Of a stretch of DNA of 64,000 nucleotides, positions 9,439 to 59,398 are shown piece by piece. This DNA comes from a virus (taxonomy: Duplodnaviria; Caudoviricetes). Under the pieces are notes generated by a model, which was not told the DNA's origin, searched no databases, and saw nothing but the letters and a program-made list of their open reading frames with translations. Location: IMG/VR virus record IMGVR_UViG_3300042483_000388; one strand, 5' to 3'. The translations under genes and the position numbers were made by a program. Numbering within the stretch: the first letter of the stretch is position 1; each line of letters begins with the position of its first letter.

Positions 9439-9464
9439 AAAAAATTATAGAAGTATTTATTAGT

Positions 9465-9977
9465 GTGAAAAAAATTATAAGATTAACAGAAAGAGATTTA
9501 ACAAGGATTGTTAAACGTGTAATTAATGAACAACTAGGTGGTTTATTAAGTATGCCAGACACAGGTCAAGATGTTGTAGGTCTAAATAAAGGATTTCAAC
9601 AATCAAGATGTAAAACTTACAAATCATATGGTGAATTGACTTTAGAATTATTTGGTAAATTAAGGGCCGTTGTAGGACAAACAAACTTATTAGATACAAC
9701 AATTCAATCGTGGATATCACGACTAAACAATTCAATGAAAGGTATTGGATCATCTAACGATTTGTCAAAGGTATTGTCTGAAATAAAAACTAAAGAACAA
9801 ATGGGTTCCGTATTAAACGCATATAATAAAAAATTTGGTAAAACATTATGGCAAGATTTAAGTGGTGAACAAACAATAACGTGGAATACAATTTGGGGAA
9901 TTGTCAAAAAATTTAAATCTGGAATATCAATGGATGGGTGTAAAGAATACCGTAAAAGTCAACCAGTTAACGCATAA
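9465..9977 (+). CDS. Leader-family protein carrying an annexin-repeat-like domain
   Basis: Leader MKKIIRLTERDLTRIVKRVINE; payload MKGIGS-[38 aa]-E with Y...FG..L..DL in annexin register; GTG start after TATTTAT at 9454. Confidence 0.7.
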   Translation: MKKIIRLTERDLTRIVKRVINEQLGGLLSMPDTGQDVVGLNKGFQQSRCKTYKSYGELTLELFGKLRAVVGQTNLLDTTIQSWISRLNNSMKGIGSSNDLSKVLSEIKTKEQMGSVLNAYNKKFGKTLWQDLSGEQTITWNTIWGIVKKFKSGISMDGCKEYRKSQPVNA

Positions 9978-9987
9978 TACCATTAAT

Positions 9988-10518
9988 ATGTCAAGAATTA
10001 TAAGACTTACAGAAAGAGATTTAACAAGAATTGTTAGACGAGTAATTAATGAACAAGTTCCCTTGATTAACCTTCTTGGTGCCGCTTCAGATGTTGGTCT
10101 CAATATTCCAAATTATGCGGACGATTTAACTGTTGCCAATAGAAATGCGACAAAAACTGGGTGTAAAGTTCCAAAAACAACGTTAGAAATGTGTCAAGAA
10201 TTATTTAATAACTTAATTAAGACCAAGGCACCAAAGATAGAAGATAAAAAAATCGGAGAATGGGTTTCACGACTAAATAAATCGGCGCAAGGGTTTGGTG
10301 GGGAGGATATATCAAAAATTTTATCTGAAATACCCACTCTTCCGGCAATGGTTAACGTATTTCAGATATATAACAAAATATATAAAAATACAAGATTTAA
10401 GGTAACGGCTGCCAATGATGAATGGAACAAAATTTGGGAAGTAATGAAAAAATATAACATTGGAAATAAGGTGGATTCGTGTAAAGAATATCACCCCAAT
10501 CCAACATTAAGCTCATAA
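9988..10518 (+). CDS. Leader-family protein, paralog of 9465-9977 (degenerate annexin-like repeat)
   Basis: Probable start ATG 9988 (MSRIIRLTERDLTRIVRRVINE); shares C.T...LE...W.SRLN.S..G.G..D.SK.LSEI and W..IW...KK...D.CKEY. Confidence 0.7.
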   Translation: MSRIIRLTERDLTRIVRRVINEQVPLINLLGAASDVGLNIPNYADDLTVANRNATKTGCKVPKTTLEMCQELFNNLIKTKAPKIEDKKIGEWVSRLNKSAQGFGGEDISKILSEIPTLPAMVNVFQIYNKIYKNTRFKVTAANDEWNKIWEVMKKYNIGNKVDSCKEYHPNPTLSS

Positions 10519-18714: not shown

Positions 18715-21171
18715 ATGAAACATTTATTACTTTTATTTTTATTTCCCTTCTTTTTATACTCACAGTATTGTCCTTATTTAGGTCCTGACCAACTTTTACC
18801 TTGTGGTGTAAACTCAACTACATTAACTGCCGATTTAAGTCAGTGTGGACCTGGTGGGCCAAATCCAAATCAAACAACAAACTATGGTGTAACAAATATA
18901 CCTTATGTCGCTCAAACCAATACAGGGACACAAGTCTTTTTAGGTGATGATGCAATATCTCAACCACAAAACATAGGGTTTACCTTTTGTTTTTTTGGAA
19001 ATACATATACACAGTTCTACATTGGATCTAATGGATGGATTGGGTTTTCAGGTGGTCAGCCAGCAACCTTTGCATCAGTTGCAATTCCTAATGGTGGTTT
19101 AAATGTTCCAAAGAATTGTATTATGGGTCCTTGGCAAGACTGGCATCCGGGCATCGGCGGGCAAATCAGATATCAAATTAGTGGATTTGCCCCTTGTCGA
19201 AAATTAACCGTTAGTTGGATTAACGTTCCTATGTATTTGTGTACTAATTTACAAGGTAATTTTCACATTGTCATCTATGAATCAACAAATGTAATTGAAA
19301 ACCACATACAGAACAAACCAAATTGTCCTAATTGGGCTCTTGGGACAGCAGTTCAAGGGATTCATAACCAACCAGGAACTATAGGTATTGCAGTCCCCGG
19401 TAGAAACTCTTCACAATGGTCAACTCAAAACAACTCACATAGGTGGACACCAAGCGGACCTACAGTTCAACCTGTATTAACATGGTATCAAGTAGGTAAT
19501 CCAAATCCAATTGGAACTGGACCTACAATTACAGTTACACCCCCTCTTGTTGGGGCAAACTACACATGTCATTTAGTTTATCCTACTTGTAATGCCGGTT
19601 GGTCAACATGTAACGTAGGTATTGGTAATTTAGGTCCTGATACTGTATTTGTTGCACCAGGGCCACCACAATTACCACCACCAAATTTAGTTCTACAAGA
19701 CCCAAACTGTAATAATGGGTGTAATGGATCAATTACGGTGGTTCCTAATGGAGGAACAGGAGTAACAACTATCTCTTGGAACGGTGGATCAACAAACTTA
19801 ACCTTAAATAACTTATGTAGTGGTAACTATTTGTTTAATTTAGTGGATGCTGCAGGTTGTACTTATAGTGGATCGGCAACTTTACTCAATCCTCCACCAT
19901 TACAATCTCCTCAATTTGTGAATACTAACCCAACTTGCTTTGGTTATTGTGACGGGACATCAACTGTGAACCCAATTGATGGTGTTGCACCATATACATT
20001 CCTTTGGGGTAACAACCAAACCACTCAAACGGCAACAAATCTATGTTCAGGTCAACAAACTGTAACGGTTTATGACCAATATAACTGCCCCGCACAAGGA
20101 ACAACCACATTGATTGACCCACCAATGGTTACAATCAACCAAATCACAGGTTTAGATACGGTTTGTTATAACTCTACAGTCAATCCTTATGGTGTTACAA
20201 GTGTTTTTCCTAACTTAGGGTATGTTTGGACCAACACAATAGGAAATATCACTACAGGACAAGGTACGAACCAAATAAATTTAGATGTTACTGGTGTAAA
20301 TGGGGGTAATTATCCTAACTCACTATCGGTTATTGGTGTAAATCAACTTGGATGTCAGTCATTACCTGAAACTTTTAACCTTGTTGTGTTAAATATTCTT
20401 CCATCAATCGCTCAAGTTGGTCCATTTTGTGAATACGACAACTGTATTAACCTAAATGGGACCCCACAAGGTGGAATTTTTAGTGGATTAAACATTTGGG
20501 GTGGACAATACTGTCCAAATAACGGGTTTATTGGTCTTGATGTTGTGAATTACAACTATATTCAGTCAGGTTGTTTGTTTAATACATCAATAAATGTTCA
20601 AGTATACCCAAGACCAATCATTTCTCCTGTTGTAAACGGTGTTGTTTTTGAAAATACGGAGTATCATGAGATATGTGAGGGGGATACCGTTACCGATATC
20701 TTTGATGCAGTGTCTGCAAGTGGTGGATATAACGAATGGTACTCGTTTGGTGACACAACAATTAGTCAAACCTTAAATATTACTTGGGATCAAGATGGAA
20801 TATTCCAATTTCAAGTGGTTAGATGGGACAATGGATGTGTTTCTAACCCCGAAAACTTCATTGTAACCTTAGAATTGTGTCCAAATGAGATATTTTACAT
20901 ACCAAACGCCTTTACACCTAATGGTGATGAAAGAAATAACACATTTAAACCCATAATTACGTCAGGAGTAGACGTTTTTAACTATGTATTTGTAATATAT
21001 AACCGTTGGGGACAGATAGTATGGGAATCTTATAACGCAAACATGGGTTGGGATGGTAATTATGACGATAAACCATGTCAAGATGGTGTTTATACTTGGA
21101 AATTAAGGTTTAAAACACCTAAAACTGACAAAATAAATGAATTTATAGGTAATTTAACATTAATTAAATAG
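18715..21171 (+). CDS. Secreted T9SS type-B (gliding motility-associated C-terminal domain) protein with SprB-like repeats
   Basis: Signal peptide MKHLLLLFLFPFFLYSQ; SprB-like repeats (PNCNNGCNGSITVVPNGGT, PTCFGYCDGTSTVNPIDGVAPYTFLW); C-terminal FYIPNAFTPNGDERNNTF...IYNRWGQIVW...GWDG...GVY...G.LTLIK. Confidence 0.9.
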   Translation: MKHLLLLFLFPFFLYSQYCPYLGPDQLLPCGVNSTTLTADLSQCGPGGPNPNQTTNYGVTNIPYVAQTNTGTQVFLGDDAISQPQNIGFTFCFFGNTYTQFYIGSNGWIGFSGGQPATFASVAIPNGGLNVPKNCIMGPWQDWHPGIGGQIRYQISGFAPCRKLTVSWINVPMYLCTNLQGNFHIVIYESTNVIENHIQNKPNCPNWALGTAVQGIHNQPGTIGIAVPGRNSSQWSTQNNSHRWTPSGPTVQPVLTWYQVGNPNPIGTGPTITVTPPLVGANYTCHLVYPTCNAGWSTCNVGIGNLGPDTVFVAPGPPQLPPPNLVLQDPNCNNGCNGSITVVPNGGTGVTTISWNGGSTNLTLNNLCSGNYLFNLVDAAGCTYSGSATLLNPPPLQSPQFVNTNPTCFGYCDGTSTVNPIDGVAPYTFLWGNNQTTQTATNLCSGQQTVTVYDQYNCPAQGTTTLIDPPMVTINQITGLDTVCYNSTVNPYGVTSVFPNLGYVWTNTIGNITTGQGTNQINLDVTGVNGGNYPNSLSVIGVNQLGCQSLPETFNLVVLNILPSIAQVGPFCEYDNCINLNGTPQGGIFSGLNIWGGQYCPNNGFIGLDVVNYNYIQSGCLFNTSINVQVYPRPIISPVVNGVVFENTEYHEICEGDTVTDIFDAVSASGGYNEWYSFGDTTISQTLNITWDQDGIFQFQVVRWDNGCVSNPENFIVTLELCPNEIFYIPNAFTPNGDERNNTFKPIITSGVDVFNYVFVIYNRWGQIVWESYNANMGWDGNYDDKPCQDGVYTWKLRFKTPKTDKINEFIGNLTLIK

Positions 21172-22527: not shown

Positions 22528-23058
22528 TTAAATTCCTTTAACTAAGTTTATTGATTGTTTTAAATATTCTTTAGATCTTGGAGATGGTGTATATTCATCA
22601 TCTTTAGTTTGTAAATTAAGAACCCTTTCGATGTCCTTAACTAATTCAGTTCCGTGTTCATTTTCTTTATATAGTTCAATGATTTTATCCATGGCCTTAT
22701 TACATTCACCAGAAGTTTCATCATAATAATTTTTATTTCTAAACTTATTCAAGTGATTCATCATTTCATAAGATAAATGTGCTCCACCATCCTTAATATC
22801 TTTAAATAGACGTATATTATTTAATATACCCAACGTATCAACCATAGAATTAACCCCACCACCTCTTTTGCTGATTCCTGGTGAGTATCTTGTGTACTCA
22901 TCTGATCTTCCAGCGATCTCATCTAAACTAACCACATTCTCAGGAATACAACGAGGTTTTTTATCTTTATTTTTTTTGGTATTACCAATTTCCTCTTCTG
23001 AGATAATATTTTTAAGGATTCTATTTAATTGATCCTCCGTTATTTTTACATTTTTCAT
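22528..23058 (-). CDS. Leader-family protein (MKNVKITEDQLNRILKNIISE)
   Basis: Probable start 23058; TATTTAT upstream on the minus strand. Confidence 0.7.
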   Translation of the reverse strand: MKNVKITEDQLNRILKNIISEEEIGNTKKNKDKKPRCIPENVVSLDEIAGRSDEYTRYSPGISKRGGGVNSMVDTLGILNNIRLFKDIKDGGAHLSYEMMNHLNKFRNKNYYDETSGECNKAMDKIIELYKENEHGTELVKDIERVLNLQTKDDEYTPSPRSKEYLKQSINLVKGI

Positions 23059-43089: not shown

Positions 43090-45147
43090 CTATTCCTTCT
43101 TTTTTCTAACTCTTTTTGGTTTTTCCACAATAACCTCATCAACTTTATTACCAATTACTACGTTCTCATCAACAATCGTTAAATTGTAGTTCTCATCCTC
43201 ATTAATTTCAGACATTAAAATCTTCTCAGAAATTAAATCCTCAATCTTATCTTGGATTGCCCTTTTGATCGGTCTTGCTCCGAATGTTTCGTCAAACCCA
43301 ACTTTGGATATATAATCAATTAGTGATTGGTCGTAAGTAAAGTTGTATTTTTTACCCTCAACACGTTTTAACAATCTATCAATCTCCAACTTGGTAATAA
43401 CGTCAATGTGTTCTTTCTTAAGTGAGTTGAAGACAATAACGTCATCAATACGATTTAAGAATTCAGGGGCAAAAAACTTACTAAGTTCTTTTTTAAGGAT
43501 GTCTCTCTTTTGTTCTTCTTGTATAACATTACTTGAATTATTACTTTTAAATCCAACACCTGTGCCAAAGTCGTGTAGTTTTTTAACACCAATATTGGAG
43601 GTCATAATTATTAAACAATTCTTAAAGTTAATTTTTCTACCTAATGAGTCTGTTATATGTCCATCATCCAAAAGTTGTAATAATGTTGAGAATATATCTT
43701 TATGTGCTTTCTCAATTTCATCAAACAAAATAACCGAATATGGTTTGTTTTTAACTTGTTCTGTAAGTTGTCCACCATCTTCATGACCAACATATCCTGG
43801 AGGTGACCCAATCAAACGAGAAATTGTGTGTTTTTCTTGATATTCAGACATATCAATACGGATGAGATTATCGGGACTACCAAAGATTTCTTTTGCCAAT
43901 TGTTTTGCTAAGAATGTTTTACCGACACCTGTTGAACCTAAGAAGATAAATGAACCAATCGGTTTATTTGGATCTTTAATCCCAATTCTATTTCTACGAA
44001 TAGATTTTGTGATTTTCAAAACTGCCTCTTCTTGACCAATAACGATTGAGTTAAGGTTTTTATCTAAATTAATAAGTGAGTTTTTCTCATCTAAATTTAT
44101 GTTTGAAATTGGAATTTTGGTCATGTTGGAAACAACCTCATAGATTAATTCTTCCGGTATATTTCTTTTACTAATTTTAAGTTCTTCGTTAAACTTTTTC
44201 TTCTCAATTTCTAAATTAGTCAAAACATTTCTCTCTCTATCTCGAAGATTTGCGGCTTGCTCATAATCTTGACGCTTAATTACGTTAATTTTTTCCAATT
44301 TAATGTCGGAAGCTTTACGTTTTAAGTTTTCAATAATTTCGGGAAGTTTAATATCTATTTGCATTCTTGCCCCAACCTCATCCAATATATCAAACGCCTT
44401 ATCGGGAAACTCACGATCTGTGATATATCTATCGGCCAACTCAACAAATATCCGAAGAGTTTCATCACTGTAAATAACTTTATGATGGTCTTCGTATTTT
44501 GATTTACTTTGTTTAAGGATTTCAAATGTTTCTTCTTTGGTTGATGGATCAACGACGACTTTTTGAAATCTCCTCTCTAACGCACCATCTTTTTCGAAGT
44601 TAGTTCTATATTCATCCAAAGTAGTTGCTCCAATACATTGGATCTCACCACGAGATAAGGCTGGTTTAAATATGTTGGAGGCATCTAACGAACCTGAACT
44701 ATTTCCCGCACCTACAATAGTGTGAATTTCATCAATAAAAAGTATGATATTTGGACTATTTTGTAATTCCTCAATAATAACCTTCATTCTTTCTTCAAAC
44801 TGACCACGATATTTGGTGCCCGCAACAATTGAGTTCATATCCAACGATACGATTCTTTTATCTAATAAATTTTTTGGACATTCTCCGCCATGTATCATCA
44901 TTGCTAAACCTTCAACAATGGCTGTTTTACCACATCCAGGTTCACCAATTATAATTGGATTATTTTTCTTACGTCTTGAAAGAATCTGAGCAATCCTAAG
45001 GATTTCCTTTTGTCTACCAACAACTGGATCAAGTTTTCCTTCTTCCGCTAATTTATTTAAATCCTTACTAAAGTTATCAAGTACTGGTGTTCCGCTATCC
45101 GGCTTCTTTTTCCCATTATCTCCCTTATCATCTACAAAGTCTAACAT
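43090..45147 (-). CDS. clpC: ClpC-like AAA+ unfoldase lacking the N-terminal Clp-repeat domain
   Basis: LDPVVGR, Walker A GEPGCGKT and GSTGVGKT, Walker B ILFIDEIH and ILFDEIEK, UVR-like M domain (QDYEQAANLRDRE), GVGF loop, FGARPIKR; only about 18 aa precede TPVLDNFSKDL. Confidence 0.9.
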   Translation of the reverse strand: MLDFVDDKGDNGKKKPDSGTPVLDNFSKDLNKLAEEGKLDPVVGRQKEILRIAQILSRRKKNNPIIIGEPGCGKTAIVEGLAMMIHGGECPKNLLDKRIVSLDMNSIVAGTKYRGQFEERMKVIIEELQNSPNIILFIDEIHTIVGAGNSSGSLDASNIFKPALSRGEIQCIGATTLDEYRTNFEKDGALERRFQKVVVDPSTKEETFEILKQSKSKYEDHHKVIYSDETLRIFVELADRYITDREFPDKAFDILDEVGARMQIDIKLPEIIENLKRKASDIKLEKINVIKRQDYEQAANLRDRERNVLTNLEIEKKKFNEELKISKRNIPEELIYEVVSNMTKIPISNINLDEKNSLINLDKNLNSIVIGQEEAVLKITKSIRRNRIGIKDPNKPIGSFIFLGSTGVGKTFLAKQLAKEIFGSPDNLIRIDMSEYQEKHTISRLIGSPPGYVGHEDGGQLTEQVKNKPYSVILFDEIEKAHKDIFSTLLQLLDDGHITDSLGRKINFKNCLIIMTSNIGVKKLHDFGTGVGFKSNNSSNVIQEEQKRDILKKELSKFFAPEFLNRIDDVIVFNSLKKEHIDVITKLEIDRLLKRVEGKKYNFTYDQSLIDYISKVGFDETFGARPIKRAIQDKIEDLISEKILMSEINEDENYNLTIVDENVVIGNKVDEVIVEKPKRVRKKKE

Positions 45148-46696: not shown

Positions 46697-48151
46697 ATGT
46701 CAGGATTAAGACCAATAGGTAGTGAAAAATTAGAAGGTATGGATAAAATTAGACGAATAATGGAAATTGCTCGTTATAATGAAAACACACCTGAATCAGT
46801 TAATGAAGGATCCTTAACAACATACAGTTTATCTTTGGCTGACGGTAACACATATGAAATCGTAAAAGAAAGATTAGGGTATATTGTTAAGTTATCGATA
46901 AACGAATCTGATGCGGATTATATTGAACCGATTCAGAATAGGAAGTATTACCCATCTTATTCGAGAGCATTAAAGAAATTAAATTTAATGGCTAAAGAGT
47001 TTAATACGATATATGAAAATGTAGAAGGGACCTCGTTATTTAACGAGCAAAAAAAAAAGTATATACTAAAGGTTCCTAAACCAAAAACAACGGATAATGA
47101 AATGCCCGCACCAGCGGATATTCCCCCTCCAGCACCGGCACCAGAAATGGGTGCTCCGGTAGATGTTCCACCTCCGGTATCCGGACCACCAATGGATGAA
47201 TCAGGAATGCCACCAATGGATGATGCGGGAATACCACCAATGGGTGATACAGGAATGCCACCAATGGGTGATGCAGGAATGCCACCAATGGACGATGCGG
47301 GAATGCCACCAATGGACGATGCGGGAATGCCACCAATGGATGGTGAAGATGAATTACCTGGTTTAGGGTCAGGTGAAGGTATGGATGATGATGAACCGAA
47401 AGATAAAAAAGTATCCGATATTAAAAGAATCCAAATACTCGTTGGAAAATTAGCCCAAAAAATAAGATCTTATGAGGAAGGAAAAGAACTTTCATCTAAA
47501 GATGTAAAATATGTTATTAACTCCATTTTATCTGCTATAGATGTTGATGTTCTAAGTGAAAAAGATATAGAACAAATTATTTCAAAACTAGAAGGTCCTG
47601 ACGATGAGGATGAAGATGGTGACGTTAATGTTGATATGGAAGATGAAGAAATGGCACCTGAAGAACCTGAAGGTGAGATGGGTGAGGGTTATAATAATTT
47701 AGAGTCAGCATTTAATGATTATATGGGAGCAGCATATGCTAATACCGCAATGAGAAAATCTCTTGGTCAAGAAATTGATGAAGAAGATGATGACGAATAC
47801 CACAGAGAAAGAAGAAAAGGAAGAAAACATTTAGTAAATCCACCACAATTCTCTAACGGAACATATAATGAGTCTTCAGTGGATAAGGTCCTTTCAAAAT
47901 ATTTTATATTATCTGAAAACGAAGAAAAAGATAATCAAAAAAAACAACAAGAAAGAGCTCAAAAACAATATAAAGACACTAAATTCCAAATAATAAGATT
48001 ATCGGAAAGTATTGACCAAATTGAAGCTGCAACTGAATACATTAAAGAATTCCCAAGATCTAAATTATTTGGAGTATCAAATAAAGGAAATCTTATTTTT
48101 AAACAAGGTATTAGTGAAGTTAAAATTACTAAATATGGTGATATCCTATGA
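46697..48151 (+). CDS. Putative prohead core / internal head protein with Pro/Met-rich repeats
   Basis: Low-complexity acidic protein upstream of terminase; many L/I-x-E sites. Confidence 0.6.
   Translation: MSGLRPIGSEKLEGMDKIRRIMEIARYNENTPESVNEGSLTTYSLSLADGNTYEIVKERLGYIVKLSINESDADYIEPIQNRKYYPSYSRALKKLNLMAKEFNTIYENVEGTSLFNEQKKKYILKVPKPKTTDNEMPAPADIPPPAPAPEMGAPVDVPPPVSGPPMDESGMPPMDDAGIPPMGDTGMPPMGDAGMPPMDDAGMPPMDDAGMPPMDGEDELPGLGSGEGMDDDEPKDKKVSDIKRIQILVGKLAQKIRSYEEGKELSSKDVKYVINSILSAIDVDVLSEKDIEQIISKLEGPDDEDEDGDVNVDMEDEEMAPEEPEGEMGEGYNNLESAFNDYMGAAYANTAMRKSLGQEIDEEDDDEYHRERRKGRKHLVNPPQFSNGTYNESSVDKVLSKYFILSENEEKDNQKKQQERAQKQYKDTKFQIIRLSESIDQIEAATEYIKEFPRSKLFGVSNKGNLIFKQGISEVKITKYGDIL
47186..47347 (+). 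repeat. 24-bp coding tandem repeat (GMPPM[D/G]D[A/T]-like, 7 PPM units)
   Basis: CCACCAATGG... units visible in DNA and protein. Confidence 0.9.
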
Positions 48152-49408: not shown

Positions 49409-51184
49409 ATGGGACTATCTAAAGAACAGGTAATGATTGAATATGTTAAGTGTATGCAGGACACTCCATACGCTCTTCGCACATATTTACAAACTTACGA
49501 CAATACGGTATCACAATACGTCCCATTAGAATTATTTCCGGATCAGGTTTCTTTATTACAAGATTATGAGGATTATGAGGAAAACATCGCATTAAAATAT
49601 AGACAAGCTGGTGTATCAACGGTAACGGCAGCTTGGGTGTCAAAACGATTAGTTTTTGCTAAGAAAACTAAACCAGAAAAAATCTTAATTATTGCTAACA
49701 AACTTGATACATCCCAAGAGATGGCAAATAAGATTAGATCGTTTGTGGGTCAATGGCCTTCTTGGGTTGGTACTGGATTTGCGTCAGAAAAAAATGCACA
49801 AAAACACTACAAACTTGTAAATGGGTCTGAGGTTAAAGCGGTGGCAACATCAAAAGATGCCTTGAGAGGATTTACACCAACAATACTCATATTTGATGAG
49901 GCAGCATTTATTGAGGCGGATAACGATTTTTGGGCGGCTTGTATGGCGTCCCTATCCACTGGAGGTAAGGTAATCGTGGTTTCTACCCCTAACGGGTATG
50001 ACCCAATTTACTATGAAATATATGACCAAGCATTAAAAGGGATGAATCAATTTAAGATTACTGAAATGTTTTGGTATAGGGATCCACGATACACAAAAGA
50101 TCTTTATTTAGTTAAGACTGACGATATAGTTCATTATTTGCTCAATAGAGAAGAATATGACGAATCAAAAAATATTTCATTATCACATGTTGACCCATAT
50201 GAAAGAGATTACGATGAAATGTCTTACTTTTTTAAACAAGGGTATAAGCCATGTTCAAGTTGGTATGAAAAAATGGTTAAAAAACTTAAATATGATAAAA
50301 GAAAAATTAACCAAGAATTAAATTGTGCGTTTTTAGGGTCTGGTGACAACGTATTTGATAATAAACAACTTGAAGATATTAAAAATCTCTCATTGCAAGA
50401 ACCAATAACAAAGTTAATGGGTAATTCTATTTGGATATGGAAAGAACCTGTTGAGGGACATAAATATATTATGGGTATGGATGTTTCTCGTGGTGATAGC
50501 GAAGATTTTTCATCTATACAGATTATTGATTTTGATACAAGAGAACAAGTTTTTGAATATGTTGGAAAAATTCCTCCAGATAATTTAGCTGAAGTCGCCT
50601 ATAAATGGGCTGTTATGTATAAAGCATTTATTGTTGTGGATATTACTGGTGGTATGGGAATTACAACGGTAAGAAAACTACAAGAATTAGGATATAGGAG
50701 TTTATATGTTGAGGGTGTTGATTCTATGAATATTTGGGCGGTTAATAAAACTGCTATTGATAAAATACCTGGAATAAACTTTAACAACAAAAGAGTTCAG
50801 ATTATTGCCGCCTTTGAGGAGGGAATAAGACATAAATTCCAAATTAGAAGTGTTCGTTTATATAATGAGATGAATACGTTTATGTATATGAATGGTAGAC
50901 CAGACCACCAAAAAGGACAACATGATGACCTTATTATGGGAATATCTATGGCACTATATGTTGGTGAATCATCATTCTCTAAATTAGAAAAAGTAACCGA
51001 ACAAACAAAATCTATGATTAATTCATGGGCGGTTGTTAATAACGATACGGTGGCTAAGGAAGCTCACTTTAACCCAGTAATCCCAAATCAGAATATGTTG
51101 AATGAGAGGGCGGGTTTAAACACAGGAGCATCACGTAAGGACTATGAACAATATGGTTGGTTATTTGGTGGTATGAGAAGATAA
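49409..51184 (+). CDS. terL: Terminase large subunit (T4 gp17-like)
   Basis: LKYRQAGVST (Walker A region), ILIFDEAAFI (Walker B), VSTPNG, GMDVSRGDSEDFSSI and HDDLIMG nuclease motifs. Confidence 0.95.
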   Translation: MGLSKEQVMIEYVKCMQDTPYALRTYLQTYDNTVSQYVPLELFPDQVSLLQDYEDYEENIALKYRQAGVSTVTAAWVSKRLVFAKKTKPEKILIIANKLDTSQEMANKIRSFVGQWPSWVGTGFASEKNAQKHYKLVNGSEVKAVATSKDALRGFTPTILIFDEAAFIEADNDFWAACMASLSTGGKVIVVSTPNGYDPIYYEIYDQALKGMNQFKITEMFWYRDPRYTKDLYLVKTDDIVHYLLNREEYDESKNISLSHVDPYERDYDEMSYFFKQGYKPCSSWYEKMVKKLKYDKRKINQELNCAFLGSGDNVFDNKQLEDIKNLSLQEPITKLMGNSIWIWKEPVEGHKYIMGMDVSRGDSEDFSSIQIIDFDTREQVFEYVGKIPPDNLAEVAYKWAVMYKAFIVVDITGGMGITTVRKLQELGYRSLYVEGVDSMNIWAVNKTAIDKIPGINFNNKRVQIIAAFEEGIRHKFQIRSVRLYNEMNTFMYMNGRPDHQKGQHDDLIMGISMALYVGESSFSKLEKVTEQTKSMINSWAVVNNDTVAKEAHFNPVIPNQNMLNERAGLNTGASRKDYEQYGWLFGGMRR

Positions 51185-51413: not shown

Positions 51414-53195
51414 ATGGAAAATAACAATCAAAATTTTACAGTTTGGCAAAGGTTATCCAAAACTTTTGGACCTGATTCAACATTGGGGATGAGTCAACCT
51501 GACTATAAGTTAGATAAGAAAGAAATACTAAAAACAACAGATAAGGCCGAATACGAAAGGGCTAAATTACAGAATCAACAATCACTATACCTAAGTTCAA
51601 ATTGGGCTAAGGTCGAGAACAATCTTTATACTCAGGCGGTTTATTACGAACCAACAAGATTAGCAGCATTTTATGATTTTGAAAGTATGGAATACACTCC
51701 AGAAATCTCCGCAGCATTAGATATATATGCCGAAGAATCGACAACACCAAATCAAGATGGGTATGTTCTTCAGGTATATTCAGAATCAAAAAGAATTAAA
51801 AGTATTTTAGTTGATTTATTCGTAAATAATTTAGACGTAAACACCAACTTACCAATGTGGATTAGGAATATGTGTAAGTATGGTGATAATTTCGTTTATT
51901 TAAAATTAGATCATGAAAAGGGTGTCACTGGTTGTCTGCAACTACCTAACATTGAAATTGAAAGATTAGAGAAGGGTATGGAATCTAGATCATTTAATAT
52001 AACACCAGATGAAAATCAAAAAGCGTTAAGATTTACATGGAAAGTTAAAAATGTTGATTTTAACACTTGGGAGGTCGCTCACTTCAGATTATTGGGTGAT
52101 GATAGAAAACTTCCTTATGGGACATCTATGTTGGAGAAAGCAAGACGTATTTGGAAACAATTGGTTTTGGCCGAAGATGCGATGTTAATTTATAGAACAT
52201 CAAGAGCTCCTGAAAGACGAGTATTCAAAGTTTTTGTTGGTAATATGGATGATAAAGATGTTGAGGCCTACGTTCAAAGGGTTGCAAACAAATTTAAAAG
52301 GGATCAAGTGGTTGATAATAAAACGGGTAATGTAGATCTAAGATTCAACCAAATGGCGGTTGATCAAGATTATTTTATACCTGTACGTGACACCGCACAA
52401 GCAAGTCCCATCGACACCTTACCTGGAGCAACAAATTTATCTGAAATCGCCGATATTGAATATATTCAAAAGAAATTGGTAACGGCATTAAGAATACCTA
52501 AAGCGTATTTAGGTTTTGAGGAGGCTCTTGGAGATGGTAAAAACTTATCATTGTTGGATATTCGTTTCGCAAGAACAATTAACAGGATTCAAAAATCAGT
52601 AATTGCTGAATTAAATAAAATCGCAATTATTCACCTATTCTTAATGGGTTTTGAGGATGAATTACAAAACTTTACCTTAGGACTTACTAATCCATCTAAA
52701 CAAGCCGATTTGTTAATGATTGATGTTTGGAAAGAAAAAGTGACATTATATAAGGATATGGTTGCGGAAATTCCAAAATCAATTCAAGCTACTTCGGCAA
52801 CATGGGCTAAGAAACATATATTCGGATTCTCTGATGAGGAAATTAAGTTGGAGTTACAACAAGTTAGAATGGAAAGAGCGGTTGCTGCCGAACTTGATAA
52901 TACGGCAACAATTATTACTAAAACTGGATTATTTGATACTGTGGATAGGTTATATAAACCACCAGCATCCGGATCAACAGAATCTCCAGCACCTGAAGCT
53001 GGAGGGGCACCACCACCTGATGCGGGAGGTCCTCCACCTCCACCAGACGCAGGTCCACCAATTCCGGAATCAACTCTTAATAGTAAATTAAATATTCTTA
53101 CCGAAAATTCTGAGGACGAATTTTTGGATTTCTATAAAATGAATAACTCTTTAGGTTCAATTGAAAAAGAATTATCTAAATTATTACGAGATTAA
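51414..53195 (+). CDS. gp20: Portal protein (T4 gp20-like)
   Basis: PEISAALDIYAEE, KYGDNF, LAEDAMLIYRTSRAPERRVFKVFVGN, EDYF-type DQDYFIPVR, IDTLPG, LRIPK. Confidence 0.95.
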   Translation: MENNNQNFTVWQRLSKTFGPDSTLGMSQPDYKLDKKEILKTTDKAEYERAKLQNQQSLYLSSNWAKVENNLYTQAVYYEPTRLAAFYDFESMEYTPEISAALDIYAEESTTPNQDGYVLQVYSESKRIKSILVDLFVNNLDVNTNLPMWIRNMCKYGDNFVYLKLDHEKGVTGCLQLPNIEIERLEKGMESRSFNITPDENQKALRFTWKVKNVDFNTWEVAHFRLLGDDRKLPYGTSMLEKARRIWKQLVLAEDAMLIYRTSRAPERRVFKVFVGNMDDKDVEAYVQRVANKFKRDQVVDNKTGNVDLRFNQMAVDQDYFIPVRDTAQASPIDTLPGATNLSEIADIEYIQKKLVTALRIPKAYLGFEEALGDGKNLSLLDIRFARTINRIQKSVIAELNKIAIIHLFLMGFEDELQNFTLGLTNPSKQADLLMIDVWKEKVTLYKDMVAEIPKSIQATSATWAKKHIFGFSDEEIKLELQQVRMERAVAAELDNTATIITKTGLFDTVDRLYKPPASGSTESPAPEAGGAPPPDAGGPPPPPDAGPPIPESTLNSKLNILTENSEDEFLDFYKMNNSLGSIEKELSKLLRD

Positions 53196-54673: not shown

Positions 54674-55405
54674 ATGGAAGAATTTAAAATATTAGGTCCG
54701 AGAGATTCAGGTAAGAAAGGAATTCTTATTGAATATGATGCTGGATACATCAACCCAAAAGAAAGAAGAAATTTAGATGCTATCAACGAAAATAGAGATA
54801 TGTTGGATCATTCTAAACCATTTGAGTTTTATGCTGTTCTTCAAAAATACGACACCCCAAATAGAAATGGTCGTATATACCCTGAAAGAATATTAAAAAG
54901 AGAGTCGGAGAATTATAAAAAGATGATTGAAAAAGGAACGTCTCTTTCTGAGTTAAATCACCCTGAGTCATCTTTAATTGATTTAGACAGAGCATCACAT
55001 CTTATTACAGAGATATGGTGGGAGGGTCCTGTTTTATTAGGTAAATTGAAATTACTTACAAGTCCAGGTTTCCATGAAAGAGGTATTGTATCAACAAAAG
55101 GGGATTTAGCCGCAAATTTCTTACGTCAGGGGGTTACATTAGGAATATCCTCTCGCGGAGTAGGTTCCCTTAAGAAGGTTGGAGAACAAAATGAAGTTCA
55201 GGATGACTTTGAATTAATTTGTTTTGACCTTGTATCTTCACCATCTACACCGGGAGCTTATTTGTTCTCAGATAAAAACGATAGAATGAAATATGAGGAG
55301 AACTTAGACGAGGAGAAAAAAATGTCAGTAGAAAGAAATGTTGGGGAATCAGGAAACAAATCACTTGACTTAATGAAAAGATTAACCCATTATTTGGATA
55401 AATAA
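54674..55405 (+). CDS. gp21: Prohead maturation protease (T4 gp21-like)
   Basis: PNRNGRIYP, SELNHP, LDRASHLI, LGISSRGVGSL, FDLVSSPSTPGAY. Confidence 0.93.
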   Translation: MEEFKILGPRDSGKKGILIEYDAGYINPKERRNLDAINENRDMLDHSKPFEFYAVLQKYDTPNRNGRIYPERILKRESENYKKMIEKGTSLSELNHPESSLIDLDRASHLITEIWWEGPVLLGKLKLLTSPGFHERGIVSTKGDLAANFLRQGVTLGISSRGVGSLKKVGEQNEVQDDFELICFDLVSSPSTPGAYLFSDKNDRMKYEENLDEEKKMSVERNVGESGNKSLDLMKRLTHYLDK

Positions 55406-55753: not shown

Positions 55754-57478
55754 ATGGAAAAAAAACAAAATGTAGTAGAAGACGCTCTATTCCAAATTCG
55801 TAATTTGGAAGAGACTCTACAAGAAAATGCAAAAGGAATACTTCAATCTACAATGAAAGAAGAAATCAGACAATTAGTAAAAGAATCTCTTAGGGAACAA
55901 GATGAAGAGGAGATTGAACCATTAACAGGCGGAGAAGCCGAACTTGATTCTGAGACAGAATTTGAAGATGACGACATGGATGACATGGAAGATGATGACA
56001 TGGATGACATGGAAGATGACGAAATGGGTGACGTGGAAGATGACGAAATGGAATTTGATGTTGACGATGAAGAAACTATTGATTTGACAAGTGCGTCAGA
56101 TGAAGAAGTATTAAAGGTTTTCAAAGCTATGGGAGATGAAGATGGAATCATCGTGAAAAAAGAAGGTGGTAATATTCACCTTAAAGATGGTGATAATGAT
56201 TATATGATCCAATTAGGAGAATCTTACATGGACGATGGTCAAGAAGAAGATGAATTTGAACCAACTGACCTTGAAGAAACAATCTATGAAATTCAAATGG
56301 ATGAAGAAGATGATTTAAATCCTGAAGGAGAAACAATCTACGAAATTCAAATGGATGAAGAATACGACGAAATGGATTTTGAAACTCCTGTGAGAGATGC
56401 TATCAGATCTCATAAAGGTAGATTTGAAACTCCTATGAGAGATAGATTAAGATCTCGTATGGAAGATAACGTGGAAGATGACATGTCAGATAGATTCAGA
56501 TCTCGTAGATATAGAGATATGGAAGATGACATGGCAGAAGGTGTTGATCCTGAAATGATGGAATACAATATGTCTAACCTTGATCTTGGTGAAGAAGATG
56601 ATATGTATTCTAGTCCAGAAATGGGTGAAGGAAATCATATGTATGGTAATTCAGAAATGGAAGAAGAAGAAGAAGTGAGTATGAGTGATTTAAACTCAGT
56701 TATGGAAGCCGTTAAAAAAGCTATGAAACCGAAAGGAATTGGAATGGGAAATGCTTCTAAATTCAAATATGGTAAAAAACCTAACATGAGTGGAGGGTTT
56801 AACGAAAAAAGAAAAGAAGGACCTAAATCTGTTGGTACAGGTAAAGCTAGATTTGAATACAAAGAAGAACATGAATATGGTGGTAACTCACACGATTACA
56901 AACGTAAGGATGTTAAGGGTGTTGAGAAAAAAACCGGAGTCGTGAAAGGTCATTTTAAAGATTATGAAGGTAAGAAATCTGAAACTAAAGAATCCGCGAG
57001 AACTTTAGGTAATGGTAGTAGAAATTATCCGGAAAGAAAATCTATACCTAAAATGAGAGTAAGACCAACTAATGAAAGTGTTTCAAATGAAGTGAATTTG
57101 TTAAAAGAAAAAAATAATGAATACAGACAAGCTCTTGATATTTTTAGAACAAAACTTAATGAAGTTGCAACATTTAATTCAAACTTGGCTTATGCAACAA
57201 GACTATTTACTGAACACTCAACAACTAAACAAGAAAAAATAAATATTCTTAGAAGATTTGACAATGTCGATACTTTGAAGGAATCAAAAAGTCTGTATAG
57301 GTCAATAAAGGATGAGTTATCATCTGGATCTAAATCAGAAGAAAGATTAACCGAATCAATTGAAAGAACTGTTAACAGAACCGCATCTACGGGATCGTCA
57401 ACTAATCTAATTGAATCAAAAACGTATGAAAATCCACAATTCTTAAGAATGAAGGATTTGATGACAAAAATAAAATAA
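55754..57478 (+). CDS. Prohead scaffold / core protein (gp22-like)
   Basis: Highly acidic, coiled-coil C-terminus (LNEVATFNSNLAY), directly upstream of the MCP; many I/L-x-E sites. Confidence 0.8.
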   Translation: MEKKQNVVEDALFQIRNLEETLQENAKGILQSTMKEEIRQLVKESLREQDEEEIEPLTGGEAELDSETEFEDDDMDDMEDDDMDDMEDDEMGDVEDDEMEFDVDDEETIDLTSASDEEVLKVFKAMGDEDGIIVKKEGGNIHLKDGDNDYMIQLGESYMDDGQEEDEFEPTDLEETIYEIQMDEEDDLNPEGETIYEIQMDEEYDEMDFETPVRDAIRSHKGRFETPMRDRLRSRMEDNVEDDMSDRFRSRRYRDMEDDMAEGVDPEMMEYNMSNLDLGEEDDMYSSPEMGEGNHMYGNSEMEEEEEVSMSDLNSVMEAVKKAMKPKGIGMGNASKFKYGKKPNMSGGFNEKRKEGPKSVGTGKARFEYKEEHEYGGNSHDYKRKDVKGVEKKTGVVKGHFKDYEGKKSETKESARTLGNGSRNYPERKSIPKMRVRPTNESVSNEVNLLKEKNNEYRQALDIFRTKLNEVATFNSNLAYATRLFTEHSTTKQEKINILRRFDNVDTLKESKSLYRSIKDELSSGSKSEERLTESIERTVNRTASTGSSTNLIESKTYENPQFLRMKDLMTKIK

Positions 57479-57511: not shown

Positions 57512-59398
57512 ATGGGAGCATTATTAGAATCAGGTCTTGTTGGTAACATAGGGTTAAAACACCTTAAAGTTATCAAAGAAGACACTATTAACAAATGGAA
57601 CAAATTAGGGTTCCTTGATGGACTTAAAGGTCATCTAAAAGAAAATATGGCTCAATTATATGAGAATCAAGCGTCACATTTGATTAACGAAGCAACTGGA
57701 GAAGGTTCTAACGGAGCATTTGAAACTGTTGTTTTCCCAATCGTAAGACGTGTATTCTCTAAATTGTTAGCTAACGACATCGTATCAGTACAAGCAATGA
57801 ACTTACCTATCGGTAAATTGTTCTACTTCGTACCTAAAATCCAAGGATATCAAAATGAATATCAAGGACCAGATGCGACAGGTGGTATTCATTATCCTCC
57901 AGTTGGAGCACCAAATGGACCTGCTAATGGAGCTGGATATGAGCCAACAGGACCATACGCTTACAAGAAAAACCTTTATGATTTATTCTACGAAGGAAAT
58001 GAGGCAGGAATGGATCCACAAGGATTATTTGACTACTCTAAAGGTAAGTGGACCGCAGTTACTGCAACTACAACAATCCAAGCATGGGCTGGTTCAGCAC
58101 TTGTTAACGCAACTATCAACGGAGGTACTCCTGCAGGTGGAACACAAATTCCAGCAGGTAACATAAGAAAAGTTCTTATGAAAATGTGTGGTTTCGCAAA
58201 TTCAGGAGCTGGTAAATTAATCGGACCTGATGGTAACGAAATGGATAGTGAGGCATTTTTGTCTGACTTGAGAATATTCGCATCAACAGGATTATCCGCA
58301 TCTACTACACCTTGTGACGTTCTTAAAAACAGTGCAGGACAATACATTCCTTTATTATTTAGATGTGTTACTCAAATATACGGTAAAGGTCTTGTTAAAT
58401 ATGGTGGTCAACAATCAACAACATTTGCAAACACTAGTACTCAACCTAACGACGCAGGTAATGGTGGTTCTTACTACGATATCTGTGACTCAGATGGTTG
58501 TATCTATTTAGAAGTAGATTTATCTTGTCCAGTATGTGCTGATTGTGACTCAACATCTTTAGATGGTTACACAGGTACTACAATATACTCAGGTGGATCT
58601 GGAACTTCATTTACTGCATTCTTTAGACGATATGCTAACTTAGAATTTGAAGACGAAATTGGTGAGGTTTCTTTTGATTTAGAATCAGTAACTGTTTCTG
58701 TAACTGAAAGAAAACTAAGAGCACAATGGTCTCCTGAATTAGCTCAAGACGTTGCGGCATTCCACAACATCGACGCTGAAGCTGAATTAACAGCATTGTT
58801 ATCTGAACAAGTAGCAGCTGAAATCGACCGTGAGATCCTTCGTGACTTACGTAAAGGTGCGGCATGGAACTTACGTTGGGATTACAACGGATGGAGAAGA
58901 ATTTCTCAAACAACATCTTACACTCAGAAAGACTGGAACCAAACATTAATTACAGCAATCAATCAGTTGTCTGCACAAATTCACAAATCAACTTTGAGAG
59001 GTGGTGCTAACTGGATCGTTGTTTCTTCTGAGGTTTCTGCTATCTTTGACGATTTAGAATACTTCCACGTATCTAACGCGGCTCCTGAGCAAGATCAGTA
59101 TAACATGGGTATTGAAAGAGTTGGTACTCTTGCAGGACGTTACCAAGTTTATCGTGATCCTTACTTCCCAGCAAACCAAGTTTTGATTGGACACAAAGGA
59201 ACATCATTGTTAGACACAGGTTACATCTACGCACCGTATGTACCATTACAATTAACACCTACAATGTACAATCCGTTCAACTTTACTCCGATCAAAGGAA
59301 TAATGACGAGATACGCGAAAAAAATGGTAAATAATCGCTTTTACGGGAGAATTACCGTAGATGGTGTTCGTACATTCGATTTAAGAGAATTGAGATAA
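57512..59398 (+). CDS. gp23: Major capsid protein (T4 gp23-like) with large insertion
   Basis: VQAMNLPIGKLFY, RKLRAQWSPELAQD...IDAEAEL...EIDREI, GYIYAPYVPL, MTRYAK. Confidence 0.96.
   Translation: MGALLESGLVGNIGLKHLKVIKEDTINKWNKLGFLDGLKGHLKENMAQLYENQASHLINEATGEGSNGAFETVVFPIVRRVFSKLLANDIVSVQAMNLPIGKLFYFVPKIQGYQNEYQGPDATGGIHYPPVGAPNGPANGAGYEPTGPYAYKKNLYDLFYEGNEAGMDPQGLFDYSKGKWTAVTATTTIQAWAGSALVNATINGGTPAGGTQIPAGNIRKVLMKMCGFANSGAGKLIGPDGNEMDSEAFLSDLRIFASTGLSASTTPCDVLKNSAGQYIPLLFRCVTQIYGKGLVKYGGQQSTTFANTSTQPNDAGNGGSYYDICDSDGCIYLEVDLSCPVCADCDSTSLDGYTGTTIYSGGSGTSFTAFFRRYANLEFEDEIGEVSFDLESVTVSVTERKLRAQWSPELAQDVAAFHNIDAEAELTALLSEQVAAEIDREILRDLRKGAAWNLRWDYNGWRRISQTTSYTQKDWNQTLITAINQLSAQIHKSTLRGGANWIVVSSEVSAIFDDLEYFHVSNAAPEQDQYNMGIERVGTLAGRYQVYRDPYFPANQVLIGHKGTSLLDTGYIYAPYVPLQLTPTMYNPFNFTPIKGIMTRYAKKMVNNRFYGRITVDGVRTFDLRELR

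Follow-up and report, generated by a model that had tools for sequence, protein, structure and literature searches.

A 64,000-nucleotide stretch of viral DNA (IMG/VR record IMGVR_UViG_3300042483_000388; hereafter, at its full length, the window), which is part of the genome (roughly 300 kb) of an uncultured T4-like lake phage, encodes a small protein that carries one annexin repeat behind an N-terminal leader peptide. The gene (9465-9977, + strand) starts with GTG and specifies a precursor of 170 amino acids, the 9465 protein, defined from its open reading frame (ORF) together with profile and model evidence. The adjacent gene (9988-10518, + strand) encodes a paralogue of 176 amino acids with the same leader and an annexin-like repeat without the acidic calcium ligand. 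On the combined evidence of sequence and modelled fold we consider it close to certain that the repeat of the 9465 protein truly belongs with the annexins as a superfamily.

Used alone as a phmmer query against all chains of the PDB, the 9465 protein gave 74 matches, annexins without exception, the best being annexin VI (3.4e-9). In the HMMER alignment residues 86-139 lie without a gap on repeat 1 of annexin VI, with GIGS of the phage protein opposite GFGS and E135 opposite the Glu of that repeat. Metagenomes yielded 109 homologues of the protein, and a profile of 75 homologues recovered from the PDB the same 74 annexins only (best 4.4e-25, about 1e-14 for the four-repeat annexins). The Pfam Annexin model (PF00191) aligned residues 86-135 with positions 5-54 of its 66 at 21.0 bits (E 3.5e-4); nine orthologues, 55-77% identical to the 9465 protein, pass the gathering cut-off at 25.5-29.9 bits, and PF00191 matches at E <= 0.01 in 58 of the 75 family members. 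A profile of the payload domain, run against 1.84 billion representative proteins, retrieved 959 matches at E <= 0.001; ten of these were looked up, and the four with names came from the protists Effrenium, Yihiella and Diphylleia and, as an annexin, from a Gastranaerophilales metagenome-assembled genome. Per repeat, the phage family scores 25-35 bits against its multi-repeat relatives and is no closer to the bacterial than to the protist annexins (25-35 bits each).

Pfam, the PDB alignments and the family hidden Markov model (HMM), the last run over all six frames of the window, agree on one repeat per protein and not on the core of four or eight, so that the 9465 protein resembles the single-domain bacterial forms and not a canonical annexin. 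Pfam found no domain besides annexin in it. We considered residues 47-67 as the remnant of a preceding repeat and rejected the idea, the sign of it being one 9-bit alignment stretch that the profile search did not reproduce.

The predicted fold points the same way. In the AlphaFold2 model the globular payload domain (residues 47-165; 9603-9959) is made of a strand with C49, an extra helix (55-67), the annexin repeat and a strand with C159, and the mean predicted local distance difference test score (pLDDT) per 10-residue block is mostly 80-94 across residues 51-160. The repeat itself (residues 78-151; 9696-9917), delimited by the structural and Pfam matches, has five modelled helices, A (78-91), B (99-106), C (110-124), D (128-132) and E (140-151); the strands, at 49-52 and 159-162, are the only two in the model, and the chain ends at residue 170, 19 residues past helix E. 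In the VIA comparison of this model the top 50 entries were annexins or giardins throughout, at Z scores of 6.3-7.8 and a root mean square deviation of 2.5-3.8 Å over 70-84 residues. Foldseek, given the full model against the PDB, returned no match at E <= 0.001 (E 0.28 and above), though annexins dominate its list. The first-pass annotation, made from the letters alone, had proposed an annexin-repeat-like domain here and had named a Pfam search and an AlphaFold and Foldseek comparison as its checks. The domain stands on the profiles, on the orthologues above the Pfam cut-off (the window protein itself being under it) and on the predicted five-helix fold with its VIA matches; of the structural checks, the Foldseek one gave no significant match. 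Because sequence and predicted fold agree, we regard the assignment as secure.

The calcium site can be read residue by residue. The AB loop M-K-G-I-G-S (M91-S96; 9735-9752), an endonexin-type calcium loop, is followed after 38 residues by E135 (9867-9869), a candidate bidentate calcium ligand 40 residues past G95, which is the type II signature with Ser in the place of Thr. The earlier claim of exactly 38 residues between GxGS and E was correct, the loop being G93-S96 and the peptide quoted for it residues 87-135. Among the 75 homologues G93 is found in 71, G95 in 74 and an acid (E or D) at position 135 in 64, and position 94, at the tip of the loop, is hydrophobic (V, I, L or F) in 60. G93 is replaced or gapped in four members, all of which have K at 135; the acid alone is absent in seven further members, giving 11 of 75 without it. 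The loop glycine G93 is thus never lost alone, which fits one functional site, and, judged from these sequences, part of the family has abandoned it. For the 9465 protein, Ca2+-dependent binding of acidic phospholipids is plausible.

Two further features set the family's domain apart. The cysteines C49 and C159 are each kept in 70 of the 75 homologues, and of the five without C49 four are also without C159. A co-conserved cysteine pair placed in the only two strands of the model makes a disulfide probable, and such a C49-C159 bond would staple the ends of the domain. The tryptophans W140 and W144 are family-specific and lie at or in helix E, W140 being its first residue. The predicted mature part, of about 148 residues, is basic (pI about 9.6, with 20 Lys and Arg against 12 Asp and Glu).

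Ahead of the domain stand a linker and the leader. The linker (residues 23-46; 9531-9602) is predicted to be disordered, with pLDDT below 50 over residues 21-46, and contains the conserved motif G-G-L-L-x-M-P-E/D-T-G-x-D-V (within residues 23-38; 9531-9580), in which P31 is kept in 68 of 75 and G34 in 57 of 75 homologues. The motif belongs to the payload, since it is also found after a different leader class (P0146). It superficially resembles the LPxTG sorting motif, but is situated near the N-terminus. The leader (residues 1-22; 9465-9530), with L7-T8-E9 and I20-N21-E22, is predicted to form an amphipathic helix, modelled at low confidence for residues 9-27, and reads M-(K/S)-(K/R)-I-I-R-L-T-E-R-D-L-T-R-I-V-(K/R)-R-V-I-N-E across the two proteins. 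It is the best-conserved part of the annexin family: E9, L12 and E22 are present in all 75 homologues, L7 and V19 in 74 each and I20 in 71.

The same peptide is used far beyond the annexin genes. Strict copies begin at least ten ORFs of the window (4301, 5205, 6007, 6510, 6824, 9465, 9988, 14304, 16959 and 41488), about ten more ORFs have looser ones, three to eight ORFs carry it in each related locus of 13-20 kb (L003, L005 and L007), and viral contigs, up to 321 kb in length, contain more than 598 stretches that match the motif. The proteins so tagged are unrelated to each other and mostly without Pfam matches, so that 'leader-tagged', as the 9465 protein had first been described, holds as a description. 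Among the ten window leaders 181 of 535 identical residue pairs (34%) are encoded by different codons; these synonymous differences indicate that selection acts on the leader peptide and not on the DNA. The mature leader-tagged proteins, those from 6007, 6824, 14304, 22528-23058 (- strand) and 41488 among them, contain zero, two or four cysteines, and only the 9988 paralogue has three. As read from the sequences, the counts of zero, two and four fit disulfide-bonded proteins working outside the cytoplasm.

What the leader may do is suggested by its two invariant glutamates. L-T-E9 and I-x-E22 are hydrophobic-x-Glu motifs, and L/I-x-E is the specificity of the T4 gp21-type prohead protease. The window encodes a T4-type prohead protease (54674-55405, + strand; Pfam Peptidase_S77, E 4.7e-22, 78.9 bits), and an S77 protease was present in both complete leader-bearing viral genomes tested (304 and 321 kb). 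The T4 capsid targeting sequence (CTS) has 10 residues, and the leader runs 9 or 22 residues to its two glutamates. By analogy with T4, we think it rather likely that the leader is a capsid address, an expanded counterpart of the CTS.

Other cargo bears on the same question. In a contig from a related lake phage, a Tae4-type peptidoglycan amidase (L005:6773-7543; Pfam 1.8e-10) follows the same leader; should the leader prove to be a capsid address, this enzyme would be a candidate for a wall hydrolase delivered by the virion. In other lineages the same annexin payload stands behind other leader classes, one of the form M-K-I-I-I-T/S-E-x-Q-...-E-Q and one of 10-11 residues, M-I-R/K-L-K-...-L-x-E-Q (P0146, P0150, P0169, P0171, P0167, P0172 and L013:2770-3264). 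With at least two other classes found before it, payload and address have been recombined between phage lineages. Three longer relatives, P0142 (318 aa), P0165 (358 aa, with the full leader) and P0152 (599 aa), have the phage-type annexin domain (70-76 bits per domain) plus a C-terminal extension, and such fused forms may point to the working partner of the repeat.

The paralogue is 40% identical to the 9465 protein (E 6e-38). It starts at the ATG at 9988, as its orthologues do, and not in the longer TTG frame from 9901. It retains the leader, both cysteines, the G-x-G loop (as G-F-G-G) and the helix after it, and has a two-residue deletion and no acid where the first protein reads D-L-S-G-E, so that the type II calcium signature is absent. 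Its annexin-like repeat (residues 87-155; 10246-10452, + strand) is defined by the model, in which helices A, B, C and E are present and D is not predicted, and by structural matches: the six best VIA entries are annexins (Z 5.5-5.8), the next entry falling to Z 3.2. Pfam gave no match for this protein. The paralogue, according to the model, retains an annexin-like fold and has lost the calcium-site acid. It has conserved orthologues of its own (P0092, P0093, P0099 and P0114). The first-pass annotation had called it a degenerate tandem paralogue, and the loss of the D-L-S-G-E end is real; the reading frame is intact, though, and on the sequence comparison the gene is a diverged, conserved lineage and not a decaying copy. 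As a conserved feature the tandem arrangement had to be given up: over the fetched loci, checked with 3-10 kb of flank on each side as the contig allowed, the family HMM finds one annexin gene per locus, and in L001 the orthologue of the paralogue has a different upstream neighbour. A heterodimer prediction for the two payload domains scored 0.00, below the mark, which counts neither for nor against binding.

A short AT-rich box, GTATTTATT (9453-9461, + strand), lies 4 nt upstream of the GTG start of the 9465 gene and is a candidate late-type promoter or initiation element. Its consensus, RTATTTATW, occurs 42 times in the window against 17 +/- 4 expected, a number reached by none of 100 shuffles, and 28 of the 32 copies on the + strand are followed by an ORF start within 60 nt, compared with 35% under the null (P ~1e-9). 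The box precedes the terminase, portal and prohead protease genes, the gene at 55754 (55754-57478, a scaffold candidate), the 9465 gene and many leader genes, a distribution that fits co-regulation of 9465 with the head genes. The 9988 gene begins 11 nt past the stop codon of the 9465 gene, without a box of its own, and the pair is therefore probably co-transcribed. Before several start codons the box is only 3-5 nt away (9453, 5193, 18704, 21175, 45871, 49396, 59492 and others, terL included). If it is a -10-like element these mRNAs would be leaderless or nearly so; otherwise the box may be a translation-initiation signal. Among RNA runs the best holds 6% of the window's sampled words, which supports no statement on expression.

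The window, at a G+C content of about 30%, also encodes the large terminase (terL, 49409-51184), the portal (51414-53195) and a major capsid protein of the gp23 family (57512-59398; Pfam Gp23, 1.7e-73). Compared with the phage collection, this capsid protein has its nearest matches at 41-45% identity, headed by those of an uncultured 484 kb phage, Microcystis phage Mel-JY01 and Flavobacterium phage immuto. The host is presumed to belong to the Bacteroidota because a CHU_C/SprB type IX secretion substrate is encoded at 18715-21171. The exact 9465-9977 protein was found on contigs of up to 278,829 bp, and at least 12 sequencing runs, 11 from lake water and one from freshwater, dated 2016-2024 and counted only when not flagged as a possible source, contain at least 95% of the window's sampled words. 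The sequence thus occurs almost unchanged in lake-water metagenomes over these years, and the phage is not a one-off assembly.

The major capsid protein, of 628 amino acids, has its best Pfam Gp23 stretch at residues 375-613, and tblastn to its relatives reached only some half of its length, split into two pieces, as if a large region specific to the lineage stood at the N-terminus or had been inserted. The N-terminus of this protein holds V-I-K-E, which resembles the end of the leader.

From the anatomy observed above we infer a chain of steps that would run from late expression through capsid loading and ejection to Ca2+ and lipid binding at the entry membrane; as a whole, we put it at somewhat less than an even chance. 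The 9465 and 9988 genes would be transcribed late as a bicistron, along with the head genes, and the leader would dock both precursors on the scaffolding core of the prohead, as the CTS does in T4. The prohead protease would then cut after E9, E22 or both, and the basic mature protein of about 148 residues would be stored in the head and ejected with the DNA. Free Ca2+ is far higher in lake water and in the periplasm than in the cytoplasm, and a disulfide would be stable there. Within the envelope of a freshwater Bacteroidota host, calcium-rich and oxidising, the AB loop could bind Ca2+ and acidic lipid head groups, and the first protein, once bound, might help to engage or stabilise the membrane at the entry site, with the paralogue, which is without the calcium site, doing a calcium-independent variant of the job. 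The leader on a Tae4-type amidase, an enzyme that acts in the envelope, fits such delivery. The proposal of the first-pass annotation, an injected cargo that binds Ca2+ and membranes and possibly aids penetration or resealing, is plausible to the same degree.

Several points weigh against this interpretation. At the level of identity, the 21.0 bits of the 9465 protein are under the 25-bit Pfam gathering cut-off, and a Z of 6-8, taken alone, is modest for a helical domain. At the level of function, the 11 relatives of 75 and the tandem paralogue that are without the acidic ligand show that the family can do its work without binding calcium, and a single repeat with its one calcium site would hold a membrane only weakly unless the protein were oligomeric or present in many copies. 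The basic pI would suit association with DNA in the head just as well. Folding would have to shield an internal L-S-E (residues 104-106) from the protease, and a -10 element would not be expected as close as 4 nt to the start codon.

If the protein is loaded into the capsid and does not act on membranes, it would be a basic internal protein that packs against DNA or, like T4 IPI, is injected into the cytoplasm, where it binds a host target such as a defence protein, an alternative that we regard as unlikely. A protein of pI about 9.6 could pack against or neutralise DNA phosphates, possibly through bound divalent cations, the internal proteins of T4 are diverse anti-defence proteins with only the CTS in common (PMC3012670), and the relatives and paralogue without the acidic ligand have been conserved all the same. 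Yet 85% of the family keeps the G-x-G loop, its hydrophobic tip and the acid as a set, as expected of a working annexin-type site, and the co-conserved cysteine pair suggests a disulfide and hence a role outside the reducing cytoplasm, where free Ca2+, being sub-micromolar in bacteria, would serve annexin-type sites poorly.

We give less credence to the idea that the leader is a docking helix for some other late machine, for example the ClpA/B-like ATPase encoded at 43090-45147 or a membrane-bound assembly site, in which case the annexins would stay in the cell on the cytoplasmic face of the inner membrane and might, for instance, organise membrane-attached prohead assembly or time lysis. The window does encode a Clp-type AAA+ protein (43090-45147, - strand; phrog_4871, E 8e-234) and, near it, a 484-aa protein (46697-48151, + strand) with a weak MecA-adaptor match (E 0.006), and these two could form a phage unfoldase system that is an alternative reader of the leaders; moreover, the assembly of T4 heads starts from a portal ring that is nucleated on the inner membrane of the host (PMC5694885). 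Against this stand the invariant glutamates in L-x-E and I-x-E, which match the specificity of T4-type prohead proteases, the distance of 9 or 22 residues to each of them, comparable to the length of the T4 CTS, the co-occurrence of leader and S77 protease, and the leader-tagged Tae4 amidase, which fits delivery to the envelope. The weakest alternative, that the annexin likeness is a chance or convergent helical motif in an unrelated protein, draws on the weak Foldseek E values and on the position of the 9465 protein under the Pfam cut-off, and is effectively refuted by the PDB matches (74 of 74 annexins, by single sequence and by profile) and by the nine orthologues above that cut-off, as well as by the gapless alignment through the calcium loop and acid and by the named annexins that the domain profile retrieves among 1.84 billion proteins.

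Loading into the head and action at the entry membrane, the interpretation that we prefer, can be carried a step further, although in this form we think it improbable: a T4-like phage that loads and injects free-standing single annexin repeats as a calcium-switched lipid binder, in an abundant phage-borne family that forms a mobile reservoir between bacteria and eukaryotes. Were that true, it would help to explain the patchy spread of annexins between the two. Annexins are the textbook calcium and membrane binders of eukaryotes, most familiar from animal cells and rare and uncharacterised in bacteria, and the compact domain described here, of about 120 folded residues, is a tractable object for learning what one annexin repeat does alone. 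The proposal also supplies a concrete function hypothesis for one of the many leader-tagged genes that freshwater jumbo phages carry.

Searches for a precedent were made at several levels. Among cultured phages (50,697 phage records), blastn of the locus gave no match and tblastn of the 9465 protein gave noise only (E >= 0.8); tblastn of the 24-residue leader gave no match either, with poor sensitivity for so short a query. PHROGs has no family for the 9465 or the 9988 protein. In 185,579 reference species genomes, scanned by pattern, there were 101 pattern matches and no confirmed relative, distant relatives being able to escape such a scan. In the literature on annexins and phages we found no phage annexin paper, and none with a free-standing single repeat as the whole payload, and the leader motif, searched as text, was in no relevant paper of the literature searched.

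The best sequence and fold matches of the phage repeat are the eukaryotic annexins. With A4, A5, A6, A2 and the alpha-giardins it has in common the five-helix repeat, the K-G-x-G-(T/S) loop and, in register, the acid 38 residues on, and it differs from them in having one repeat instead of four or eight, Ser for Thr, W140 and W144, and no N-terminal regulatory region of the eukaryotic type. Bacterial annexins, as catalogued by Kodavali et al. 2014 (PMC3894181), are found mostly in Bacteroidetes, some of them with a single domain and some encoded by neighbouring pairs of short genes, with Cytophaga hutchinsonii among the species and paired short annexin genes in Kordia, Aquimarina and Flavobacteriaceae HQM9; the word phage does not occur in that paper. 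The phage proteins resemble these short annexins in their one repeat per protein, in the link to Bacteroidota and in the adjacency of two short genes. Unlike them, they are phage-encoded and have a leader, a conserved motif in the linker, an additional helix and two strands that bear cysteines.

For the leader the closest comparison is T4, in which all internal head proteins join the core by means of the CTS and gp21 removes N-terminal propeptides, cutting after Glu (PMC5694885). As with IPI, IPII, IPIII and Alt of T4, a short conserved N-terminal peptide is found here on otherwise unrelated small proteins, its motif ends in Glu, and the same genome encodes a protease of the gp21 family and a capsid protein of the gp23 family. 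The differences are that the leader has 22 residues and two candidate sites, and is used by far more genes, and that one of its payloads is an annexin, of which T4 has none.

Single annexin domains have been described on the toxins of phage-tail-like (PVC/eCIS) systems, where they were proposed to help breach membranes and invariably precede an enzymatic toxin domain (Zhang et al. 2012, PMC3482391). Like those toxins, the 9465 protein has one annexin domain and is proposed to be delivered by a contractile device; unlike them, it has the annexin as its whole payload, with no toxin domain after it, and bears an N-terminal leader of the head-protease type in a true phage. Should packaging and ejection be borne out, the protein would represent a phage ejection protein of a new kind, parallel to the annexins on the cargo of phage-tail-like injection systems. 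What is probably new, then, is a free-standing single annexin repeat, most likely stapled by a disulfide, behind a phage leader of the head-protease type.

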